Assembly (NCBI GenBank): GCA_964513845.1
Contig: CAZENT010000006.1
Location: 1 to 57,483 of the forward strand
Direction of reading: 5' to 3'
Source: an uncultured Pseudomonadales bacterium
GTDB taxonomy: Bacteria; Patescibacteriota; Microgenomatia; UBA1400; MFAQ01
Length of the DNA: 57,483 bases
The notes under the pieces were generated by a model that searched no databases, had not been told where the DNA came from, and saw only the letters and a program-made list of their open reading frames with translations. Shown piece by piece: positions 1,216 through 6,227 of this stretch (within the stretch, counting starts at the first letter, position 1; the number at the start of each line of letters is the position of its first letter). Made by a program: the position numbers and the translations under genes.

Positions 1216-1833
1216 ATGAAACTAAAAGAAGACAAGACCAAACAAATTGATGAACTTGTACCCAAAGTACAGGATCCTAATCACGTCGTCATCACCGACA
1301 ACGCCCCCGCTTCAGCCAAGTGGTACGTCGTTCACACTCAGTCTGGCCACGAAAACCGTGTTCTCGTTACCTTAAAAACCAGAGTCATCTCCATGGGCCT
1401 CGAAAACTACGTCTACGAAATCCTCATCCCTACCCAAGAAAAAATCAAAATCAACAAAGGCAAGAAAACCACCATCAAGGAAAAGCTTTTCCCTGGTTAC
1501 ATGCTTGTCCGCATGATCGTTTCCGACGACTCCTGGCTCGCAGTTCGCACCACTCAGGGCGTCACTGGCTTCGTTGGCACTGCCGACCAGCCCACCCCTC
1601 TCCCTGAAAACGAAGTTAAGGCCATCACCGCTTTCGGTGAGCAGGCTGCTCCCAAATTCCAGGCCGCTTTCACCATGGGTGAGGCCGTCAGAATCATCGA
1701 AGGACCATTTACCGATCTATTGGGAACTGTTTCCGCTATAGACGATGCCAAGGGCAAAGTCACCGTCTTGGTTAGTATCTTTGGTCGCGAAACACCGGTC
1801 GAGCTCGACTTCCTCCAGATTTCCAAGATATAA
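1216..1833 (+). CDS. nusG: Transcription termination/antitermination factor NusG
   Basis: KWYVVHTQSGHE, LFPGYMLV, KOW motif and C-terminal SIFGRETPVELDF. Confidence 0.98.
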   Translation: MKLKEDKTKQIDELVPKVQDPNHVVITDNAPASAKWYVVHTQSGHENRVLVTLKTRVISMGLENYVYEILIPTQEKIKINKGKKTTIKEKLFPGYMLVRMIVSDDSWLAVRTTQGVTGFVGTADQPTPLPENEVKAITAFGEQAAPKFQAAFTMGEAVRIIEGPFTDLLGTVSAIDDAKGKVTVLVSIFGRETPVELDFLQISKI

Positions 1834-1886
1834 CTCCCTTTTAAGCCACGAAAAAGGAGGGTGATTAGCCCTCCTTGTTTTTATGT

Positions 1887-2348
1887 TTACTTCAAATACA
1901 CCACCCCTTGCGGGACGTGAATGACAATAGAGTCATATGGGTAATGCGAAATTCCAAAGAACCACTTCCACTCTTGCCCTTTTGGAAAATCGTGCTCTAC
2001 CTTTATGTACTCCACATATGGAGTAACTCCCGTCTCAAACTTTATCTCAGCATCTGCTGAGCTGACAATCGTATCAACATTGTTGATTCGATAAGTAAAC
2101 TTGTGTTTACTTTCGTCACTCAAAAGATAAAACGAACCATCATCACCAGAATAAAAAACCATTTCCTCAATCGGCTGGCTAGCAATCACAGTCGTTTTTG
2201 TCGGAAAGCTGGCTCCAATTACTACAGCCAAAACAACTCCAAGAATCAAGCCAAGAATCAAGCCGATAAAAAACCCATCGACCTTATCCTTCACAATCGC
2301 CTTCGCCAAAAAAATCATCCCCACCCAAACCAAAACAATCGTTATCAT
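1887..2348 (-). CDS. Hypothetical membrane protein, paralog of 2361-2840
   Basis: Two N-terminal TM segments; shares SFPTKT, PKGQxWKxxFG and IVIHxPQG with its neighbour; SD AGGAG. Confidence 0.75.
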   Translation of the reverse strand: MITIVLVWVGMIFLAKAIVKDKVDGFFIGLILGLILGVVLAVVIGASFPTKTTVIASQPIEEMVFYSGDDGSFYLLSDESKHKFTYRINNVDTIVSSADAEIKFETGVTPYVEYIKVEHDFPKGQEWKWFFGISHYPYDSIVIHVPQGVVYLK

Positions 2349-2360
2349 ATTTTCTCCTCC

Positions 2361-2840
2361 TTAGTTCGATTTCTTGTTTGATTGGATTAAATACATTGAT
2401 CCCTGCGGAAGATGTATCACAATATCTTCACGAGGAAGATTTGTGGTTCCAAACCAACGCTTCCACCCTTGCCCTTTTGGCAGAGCCAGTTCGGTACGCG
2501 AATACTCAATGAAGGGCACACCGGACTCATAGACGGGATCTGCTTCATTAAAGTTTAACGTTCGAATCTCGCCTTTCACCATATATGAATACAGATTTTT
2601 ACCCTCATCTTTTTGTAGATAAAAGGCGTATCCTTCTGCTGAAACTACAGGCAGCTGCTCGATTGGCTCACTTACAATATTGATCGTCTTGGTCGGAAAA
2701 CTATTTCCAATCAAAGCGGCCACAACCAACCCCAATAGCAGTCCTGCGAAAAATCCCGGTAAACCGGCCGATGCATCATCGAAAACCAAAATAAACAAGA
2801 CGCAAAAAGTTATCGCGAGCAAAAACACTGTAACCATCAA
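2361..2840 (-). CDS. Hypothetical membrane protein, paralog of 1887-2348
   Basis: Same motifs as its neighbour; SD AGGAGG; upstream promoter. Confidence 0.75.
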   Translation of the reverse strand: MMVTVFLLAITFCVLFILVFDDASAGLPGFFAGLLLGLVVAALIGNSFPTKTINIVSEPIEQLPVVSAEGYAFYLQKDEGKNLYSYMVKGEIRTLNFNEADPVYESGVPFIEYSRTELALPKGQGWKRWFGTTNLPREDIVIHLPQGSMYLIQSNKKSN

Positions 2841-4771: not shown

Positions 4772-5197
4772 ATGGCAAAAAAAGTCAAAGCCATCCTGAA
4801 GCTCAACCTTCCGGCTGGCGCAGCGAACCCTGCTCCTCCAGTAGGTCCTGCTCTTGGTCAACATGGTGTCAACATCATGGAATTCATTACTCAGTACAAT
4901 GCTAAGACCGCCGAGATGCGTGGTCAGATCATTCCTGCTTTAGTCACTATTTTTGAAGACAGATCTTTCAAGTTTGAGCTCAAAACCCCTCCAGTTACCG
5001 CTCTCGTCAAACAAGCTCTTAACCTCAAACTAGGTTCCGGTACCCCCAACAAAGTCAAAGTTGGTGAAATTACCATGGACCAAATTAAAACCATTGCCGA
5101 GAAAAAACTTGCCGACATGAATACCAACGACCTTACCGCCGCAATCCAGATGGTCAAAGGTACCTGTAAATCAATGGGAATTACTATTAAAGAATAA
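4772..5197 (+). CDS. rplK: 50S ribosomal protein L11
   Basis: [24 protein letters not shown] signature. Confidence 0.99.
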
Positions 5198-5199
5198 CT

Positions 5200-6066
5200 A
5201 TGGCTAAAAAAACAATCTGGGACTCCCTATACAACGACCTGCCTACTCACGTAGCAGTCGCCCTTCGCGCAGCCCGTATCAAACCTGAACAAATCATCGC
5301 CAAAGAAGACGGTGAGCTCATGGCCATTGAAGGCATCAAAGAAGAAGACGTCAACTCCATAAGAGCCATCTACAACGCCGACTCCGTCGCCACCCCCTCC
5401 GAAATCATCGAAGAAGAAGCTAAAGAGGTTGCTGAAGAAGCTAAGAAAATTGCCAAAAAAATTGTGGCTCGCAAACGCTCCAACAAATACAAGGCCATGG
5501 CCAAACAGGTCAAAAAAGATGATCTTTACTCTGTCAAAGAAGCTATCGCTATGCTTTCCAAACTAGCCAAAACCACCAAACTCAAAACCTGCGAACTTCA
5601 CCTAAATACTCGTGAAACAGGCCTCAGAGGCGAGCTCAAACTCCCTCACTCCACAGGTAAAGATGTCAAGATTGCTATCTTTAGTGATGATGTCGCCGCC
5701 AAGATCACAGCTGGCCAAATCGACTTCGACATGCTTCTCTGCACCCCCGCAGACATGCCCAAAGTCGCTCGTTTTGCCAAAGTCTTAGGCCCCAAAGGTT
5801 TGATGCCAAATCCCAAGTCCGGCACCGTTACCGAGCATCCTGAAGACAGAGCCAAACAGCTCGCCTCAGGTGGCACTCTTCCTTACAAGACAGAAGCCAA
5901 GTTCCCCATCATCCATCTCAATCTTGGTTCTATCGCACAGAAAGACGAAGACCTGGTTGACAACATCAACGAAGCTATCAAAAGCATCAACGTTACCAAG
6001 ATCAAGTCAGCTTATATCTCCTGCACCCACACTCCCTCAGTTAAGCTTGCCATAAGCAACATCTAA
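5200..6066 (+). CDS. rplA: 50S ribosomal protein L1 with ~90-aa N-terminal extension
   Basis: LPHSTGK and LGPKGLMPNPKSGTV signatures; canonical L1 start (KRSNKYKA) appears only near residue 91. Confidence 0.95.
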   Translation: MAKKTIWDSLYNDLPTHVAVALRAARIKPEQIIAKEDGELMAIEGIKEEDVNSIRAIYNADSVATPSEIIEEEAKEVAEEAKKIAKKIVARKRSNKYKAMAKQVKKDDLYSVKEAIAMLSKLAKTTKLKTCELHLNTRETGLRGELKLPHSTGKDVKIAIFSDDVAAKITAGQIDFDMLLCTPADMPKVARFAKVLGPKGLMPNPKSGTVTEHPEDRAKQLASGGTLPYKTEAKFPIIHLNLGSIAQKDEDLVDNINEAIKSINVTKIKSAYISCTHTPSVKLAISNI

Positions 6067-6070
6067 TCTC

Positions 6071-6096
6071 GTCATCCCCGACCCAATCGGGGATCC
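6071..6096. repeat. GTCAT-type REP-like palindrome (related copies 13548-13582, 14018-14043, 17084-17109, 18018-18097)
   Basis: GTCATCCCCGACCCAATCGGGGATCC; similar hairpins follow the rplJ, rplL and HTH gene stops. Confidence 0.7.
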
Positions 6097-6111
6097 ACAA
6101 AGATTCCACAT

Positions 6112-6135
6112 ACCCCGCCTTACAGGCGGGGTTTT
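6112..6135 (+). terminator. rplKA terminator
   Basis: ACCCCGCCT-TACA-GGCGGGGT plus T-tract. Confidence 0.75.
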
Positions 6136-6227
6136 GGTATCAACCCCATAATTTGATTTCGGCACGCCTATGAGATAAAATACGGCCAGTACTTTGACAA
6201 ATTCAAAATAAAAAAAGGAGGGATATC

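Follow-up and report, generated by a model that had tools for sequence, protein, structure and literature searches.

A helix-hairpin-helix domain of the RNA polymerase alpha-CTD type at the N-terminus of ribosomal protein uL1 in Collierbacteria-type Patescibacteria

The window analyzed here, a stretch of 57,483 nucleotides from a patescibacterial genome of the class Microgenomatia (contig CAZENT010000006.1), contains the rplA gene for ribosomal protein uL1 (5200..6066 on the forward strand, stop included), whose product of 288 amino acids (aa) has three distinct parts. First, residues 7-58 (5218..5373, forward strand), as delimited by AlphaFold, fold matches, hhalign, conservation and selection, make up a four-helix double helix-hairpin-helix domain, hereafter (HhH)2, of the type seen in the C-terminal domain (CTD) of the RNA polymerase alpha subunit and of NusA; this assignment is confirmed by the predicted fold and by profile homology. 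Second, this domain is followed by a flexible linker (residues 59-91; 5374..5472, forward strand), which is acidic at first and then rich in lysine and arginine, and which is recognized by low prediction confidence, variation in sequence and length, and its pN/pS ratios (0.27 to 1.1). Third, the remainder is a shortened uL1 body of 197 aa (residues 92-288; 5473..6063, forward strand), defined by alignment to solved L1 chains and by the Pfam and TIGR01169 models. From this architecture we infer that the domain is most likely a tethered docking module on the ribosome, a reading to which we assign a probability of roughly 0.55.

The boundaries of the extension can be placed with some precision. 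As the earlier sequence-only reading of this DNA had stated, the open reading frame (ORF) of rplA begins 2 nt after the rplK stop: the rplK ORF, coding for uL11 (4772..5197, forward strand; 141 aa; Pfam Ribosomal_L11_N and Ribosomal_L11, E 1e-25 each), closes with TAA at 5195-5197, followed by CT and then by the rplA ATG at 5200. The Pfam model Ribosomal_L1 (PF00687) recognizes the product with 85.4 bits against a cut-off of 32.2, and the TIGR01169 equivalog with 127.9 bits, under its cut-off of 216.3; both cover only the C-terminal two thirds, and the latter score marks the protein as a divergent L1. Solved bacterial L1 chains align through their residues 2-224 with residues 92-282 of the query (E-values down to 4e-25). 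Hence, the canonical body begins at residue 92, where it opens with the bacterial N-terminal helix (KRSNKYK...), in keeping with the earlier placement of it near residue 91; the segment 5200-5475 corresponds to residues 1-92, and the extension peptide that had been quoted is present as written. Scans with Pfam and NCBIfam models returned no meaningful match for residues 1-95.

AlphaFold2, run on the full alignment, predicts the N-terminal domain with a per-residue confidence (pLDDT) of about 80 and places its helices at residues 16-24, 29-34, 37-41 and 48-57, with a short turn at 7-9 before them; modeled alone, the domain again has four helices in an HhH fold, at a pLDDT of 83. The top matches of this model in a Foldseek search of the PDB are all (HhH)2 domains, namely the N-terminal domains of RAD51/RadA, the Escherichia coli alpha-CTD, XPF and UvrC, with the E. 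coli alpha-CTD (3n4m_B) superimposing at a root-mean-square deviation of 1.1 Å over 45 columns and a probability of 0.98; the accompanying E-values of about 0.3 are those expected for a query of 60 residues. In a shape search of the ESM Atlas, nine of the ten rows are NusA, RpoA alpha-CTD or UvrC clusters (TM-scores 0.63-0.69), while a feature search of the same resource with the domain gave low scores only (0.75), with one HHH_5-bearing cluster. The sequence-only reading had proposed an alpha-CTD/HhH-type domain in the extension, and these fold searches, together with the profile comparisons given below, bear this out. It had further described an acidic and lysine-rich helical linker: its charge is as described, but most of the helix is not, as residues 63-88 are predicted to be disordered (pLDDT below 50) and a single short helix is seen at 77-84.

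The domain has a distinctive family signature, comprising W7, Y11, L14, L22-R23, A25-R26-x-K28-P29-E30-Q31, D37-G38, G45, I54-R55 and Y58. In this set, the elements of the first hairpin (R23, A25-R26 and K28-P29-E30-Q31) as well as D37-G38, R55, Y58, W7 and Y11 are invariant across the family. In the second hairpin (LMAIEGIKEEDVNSI), the first glycine of the canonical G-h-G (G45) is likewise invariant and the second is a lysine or variable. The general HhH models of Pfam detect this family sporadically: PF00633 matches one of 22 members (E 0.027) and HHH_5 four of them (best E 2.7e-4).

Relationship to the RpoA alpha-CTD/NusA-CTD family (PF03118) emerges clearly once both sides are represented by alignments. 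We compared a broadened alignment of the L1 domain (22 sequences, down to 37% identity) by means of hhalign with an independent alignment of 30 RpoA CTDs, which had been picked by PF03118 and not by the L1 profile. This yielded a probability of 95.8%, an E-value of 8e-9 and a score of 43.5 over 47 columns, as against a score of 9.6 for the reversed control and 14.7 for the best of 30 column shuffles. Moreover, when run over 401 genomes of the phylum, the domain profile matches, besides L1, the genuine RpoA alpha-CTD in two genomes (E 1e-5 and 2e-4). An exhaustive HMMER search with the same domain profile against 1.84 billion representatives retrieved 25 clusters only, nearly all of them L1 or L1 fragments, and two of these clusters are proteins with tandem PF03118 domains (E 1.7e-5 and 8e-4). 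Taken with the fold searches, these profile-profile and direct profile matches show that the L1 N-terminal domain is homologous to the PF03118 family. Comparisons lacking an alignment on one side were weaker: the narrow profile reached 23% and 1.4%, respectively, against single RpoA and NusA CTD sequences; PF03118 itself (gathering score 23.8 bits) has no match on the window protein at E-values up to 1 and matches three of the 22 family members (best E 0.017). When PDB sequences were searched with profiles of the domain, whether from the narrow or the broad alignment, no match was significant (the Hef HhH2 domain at E 0.62, NusA 6j9e_F at E 0.19 and, over 22 residues, a SARAH domain at E 0.05). 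Against six CTDs of NusA from the candidate phyla radiation (CPR), hhalign gives 93.5% and a score of 37.2, and against six-sequence subsamples of the alpha-CTDs it gives scores of 31-40; as these ranges overlap, either RpoA or NusA may have been the donor.

As for NusA in these genomes, that of the window genome (402 aa; L002, G000:C1:129085-132237, ORF 1486-2694, minus strand) ends in a single HhH domain of the PF03118 type (27 bits) and is encoded directly upstream of infB. Three proteins of 390-451 aa from other genomes (L068, L070 and L071 in G020, G023 and G017, respectively) also end in such a domain and have no BLASTP-detectable similarity to this NusA.

In the E. coli alpha-CTD, R265, N268, G296, K298 and S299 constitute the determinant that binds UP-element DNA. 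The equivalents of the first four are an invariant R, N, G and K in 15 CPR alpha-CTDs, and the window genome possesses a separate, complete RpoA with its own CTD that keeps this basic determinant. The corresponding positions of the L1 domain (17, 20, 47, 49 and 50, aligned with R265, N268, G296, K298 and S299) are H, V/E, K, E and D; across the L1-domain family, they are H/N/G, E/T/V, K/T/N, E/N and D/G, i.e. all five are replaced. The core of the L1 domain also has a net charge of -2 to -6 (median -4) compared to a median of 0 for the alpha-CTDs, and in its second hairpin, I-E-G-I-K-E-E-D, it is reminiscent of NusA's acidic repeats. With every DNA-binding position replaced and the domain net acidic, binding of nucleic acids in the manner of the alpha-CTD is unlikely, which goes against the earlier suggestion of a nucleic-acid-binding module. 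Judged by these residues, the L1 domain is a repurposed homolog of the alpha-CTD/NusA-CTD and not a member of that family in the functional sense.

This is reflected in the likenesses and differences between the L1 domain and its relatives. With the RNA polymerase alpha-CTD it shares the (HhH)2 fold and a likewise flexible attachment to a large machine. It differs in its location, which is N-terminal on uL1, the alpha-CTD being found at the C-terminal end of RpoA behind the dimerization domains; in its determinant, charge and lack of a Pfam-model match; and in a first hairpin that is one residue shorter and carries its own signature, AR-x-KPEQ. The C-terminal HhH domains of NusA, be it the E. 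coli repeats AR1/AR2 or the single CPR domain, are akin to it in both profile homology and acidic character, but have a different host protein.

Conservation and selection establish that this extension is a real part of the protein. A search with residues 1-95 alone recovered 107 protein clusters (at 90% identity), all but one of which are proteins of 274-315 aa with a Pfam L1 match, the sole exception being a 184-aa entry without such a match; where a source is named, it is Candidatus Collierbacteria or Patescibacteria group. In an alignment of 33 cluster members, residues 7-58 are near-invariant, whereas residues 59-91 vary in sequence and length, such that the spacer from Y58 to R93 measures 28-58 aa in relatives. 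We then considered the proportions of non-synonymous (pN) and synonymous (pS) differences. Against a genome of the same genus, pS is 0.72, i.e. saturated, and pN is 0.069 for the domain, 0.119 for the L1 body and 0.173 for the linker, giving pN/pS ratios of 0.10, 0.19 and 0.27, respectively. When a second genus of the same family is used instead, the order is unchanged (0.27 for the domain, 0.33 for the body and 0.74 for the linker), and against the sister family domain and body are equal at 0.48 with the linker at 1.1. These values show that purifying selection acts on the domain no less strongly than on the L1 body, and that the ORF is translated in full as a single protein. An internal start near KRSNKYK, which the sequence-only reading had itself raised against its proposal, is excluded as the only start by this strong selection at the amino-acid level. 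We also considered whether the domain occurs as a stand-alone protein, but the candidates for this, short matches of 77-149 aa in the exhaustive search, come from contigs no longer than 1.1 kb and are fragments or chimeras. In two metagenomic entries on very short contigs, the L1 N-terminal domain is followed by another C-terminus, Fe-S assembly-like in P0119 and that of an L11 in P0124; both are probably assembly chimeras. On one 1.1-kb contig, an ORF for the domain is followed 25 nt on by a second, separate one of 144 aa, an arrangement that could in principle reflect a split form.

That L1 proteins of Microgenomates bear an N-terminal extension is already known: those of Microgenomates and other CPR groups were reported to possess an N-terminal region of 40-130 aa without a Pfam match and with an uncharacterized fold, along with internal deletions in the L1 body and a caution regarding start codons (Tsurumaki 2022; bioRxiv 10.1101/2022.01.07.475337). 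The present case is the same phenomenon in its extra residues, its L1-body deletions and its lack of Pfam matches; what was one uncharacterized feature there is resolved here into two kinds. New, therefore, are the assignment of a fold and family, the occurrence of the PF03118 fold in this context, and the split between a class-wide type, consisting of a peptide and a low-complexity tract, and a folded-domain type. We found neither a structure of a CPR ribosome nor an HhH assignment for the L1 N-terminal region in the literature.

The survey of CPR uL1 N-termini advocated by the sequence-only reading was made with a full-length profile over the 401 genomes (a tally that includes one unpublished genome, G154, on which no specific claim depends). 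L1 was detected in 360 of these, with a match to the N-terminal part in only four, namely the window genome, two more of its family and one of a second family in the same order (families f1 and f3). Reading of 20 further L1 loci from the class Microgenomatia (L039-L058) revealed that most have an extension of the other type, which starts with MGK-I/K-R, three residues, I/V, G and acidic residues (plus Q), and then continues as a low-complexity tract rich in lysine and glutamate. Four further proteins, P0113, P0125, P0128 and P0134, also start with this type of peptide, which has the look of a short linear motif in itself. The folded domain is missing from two other families of the same order. 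In the sister family and several metagenomic relatives, peptide and domain are both present, in the former with the domain between the peptide and the tract; the domain was therefore inserted into a pre-existing flexible extension, and the family of the window has lost the peptide. The folded domain is shown to be a lineage-specific addition, confined to Collierbacteria-type families.

In terms of function, the combination of an acidic HhH2 domain, free of the DNA-binding determinant, with a tether whose length varies is more in keeping with a docking module than with a structural patch fixed in place. The approximately 52-residue (HhH)2 domain, homologous to the PF03118 family, is suspended by a charged and disordered tether, about 30 residues long here and 28-58 in relatives, which departs from the N-terminal helix of L1, at the stalk tip, with the slightly shortened L1 body as its anchor. 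Such a tether could allow the domain to range as far as about 100 Å from the mobile tip of the L1 stalk; on the E-site side of the ribosome, it would catch or retain a partner, and this partner would more likely be a protein than a nucleic acid. By way of functional analogy only, the bL12 C-terminal domain of the L7/L12 stalk similarly combines a small globular domain, a flexible hinge and a mobile stalk; however, it has an unrelated fold and belongs to the opposite stalk, and the recruitment of factors that is demonstrated for bL12 is conjectured for the L1 domain. A more specific and distinctly tentative version would have the acidic, alpha-CTD/NusA-AR-like domain act as a recruitment arm bringing a trans-acting partner, either an E-site translation factor or the RNA polymerase alpha-CTD/NusA, to the exit side of the ribosome.

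The best-surviving alternative, which we nevertheless consider improbable, is that the domain and linker bind the remodeled rRNA of the L1 stalk or the nearby ribosome surface, and so offset the shortening of helix 78 (H78) and the absence of bL9 and Der in this lineage. In the window genome (921 kb, 98.6% complete), bL9 indeed goes undetected and Der does not score above the cut-off, and H78 of the 23S rRNA falls 13 nt short of the Rfam consensus, as its internal loop and basal 3 bp are missing. This shortening agrees with a study reporting the loss of H78 and der in Microgenomatia and contact of the uL1 N-terminus with H78 (PMC12641178), and the loss of L9 and N-terminal extensions of L1 have been reported from overlapping lineages (Tsurumaki 2022; bioRxiv 10.1101/2022.01.07.475337). 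Furthermore, binding to nucleic-acid backbones is common among HhH2 domains, and this one has an invariant R23, R26, K28 and R55. However, the domain does not track the shortening of L1-stalk rRNA within the order, for the stalk is equally short in genomes that have the domain (G245, G148) and in others that lack it (G083, G367). The published losses of L9, Der and H78 are also class-wide as opposed to a folded domain present in two sampled families only, so that they may explain the generic extension but not the folded domain. The net acidity of the domain and its place at the far end of a disordered tether that varies over 28-58 aa, which is ill-suited to a fixed structural patch, further weigh against this explanation. 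As a separate observation on the same rRNA, the 23S gene of the window genome (G000) is split over contigs C7 and C9 (L059-L063), with model positions 1690-2035 spanning 1065 nt and positions 2045-2912 spanning 1155 nt; these long spans point to insertions or introns in the gene.

We hold it quite unlikely that the domain, by binding NusA, RNA polymerase or DNA, ties the L1 stalk to the transcription machinery, as the sequence-only reading had envisaged with its NusA-binding module and transcription-translation coupling. Such a role could draw on the homology to both the alpha-CTD and the NusA-CTD, on the binding of the alpha-CTD by the acidic AR2 repeat of NusA in E. coli (PDB 2jzb), and on the presence in the window genome of an alpha-CTD with the basic DNA-binding determinant and of a NusA with one such C-terminal domain. 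The L1 domain itself, however, is without that determinant, and we found no evidence for coupling from co-occurrence or context. In expressome structures, the RNA polymerase docks on the side where mRNA enters the 30S subunit, a long way from the L1 stalk. This renders coupling geometrically awkward, with the polymerase on the opposite side of the ribosome and probably out of reach of a 30-residue tether. A predicted complex of the L1 domain with the alpha-CTD of the same genome received no support, an outcome that counts as evidence neither way; no result favors binding of NusA or RNA polymerase.

Equally doubtful is a role away from the ribosome, in which the domain would modulate free L1, for instance in autoregulatory binding of the rplKA mRNA leader or in delivery to the assembling 50S subunit without Der. 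Bacterial L1 is a translational repressor of the L11 operon and its N-terminal helix contributes to RNA binding, which, with no Der over the cut-off in the window genome, would accommodate such a role; yet it is the generic extension and not the folded domain that follows the loss of Der. Finally, an annotation artefact, with a true start inside the ORF and an untranslated upstream frame, has been effectively refuted already: although the ATG at 5200 has no obvious Shine-Dalgarno sequence upstream and the starts of N-terminally extended CPR ribosomal proteins were cautioned to be predictions only (Tsurumaki 2022), rplK too is without such a sequence, and the domain combines a low pN/pS at saturated synonymous sites with conservation across the 107 clusters, down to about 40% identity, and a confidently predicted fold.

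Two further features of rplA lie at its 3' end. The T-M-G/S motif near the C-terminus of L1, which contacts rRNA, reads C-T-H-T-P-S in the family of the window (window 6022-6042, residues 275-281), and sister lineages retain S-T-M-S-P. Downstream of the stop (window 6071-6140) there are two GC-rich hairpins, ccccgacccaatcgggg and then ccccgcc-ttaca-ggcgggg plus TTTT, the second of which looks like an intrinsic terminator.

uL1 is universal and is positioned on the mobile stalk by which deacylated tRNA leaves the ribosome, and additions of folded domains to this protein are unusual. The ribosomes of the CPR are known as pared-down versions, and what had been a vague 'extension' on one of their proteins becomes a testable domain of 52 residues. 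If it merely stabilizes the stalk, it would represent one more case in which a reduced ribosome has substituted protein for rRNA or protein that it had lost. Recruitment of a factor, on the other hand, would make the domain a new functional element in a bacterial ribosome, and, should the recruitment arm prove true, these organisms would possess a second factor-recruiting stalk in a bacterial ribosome.
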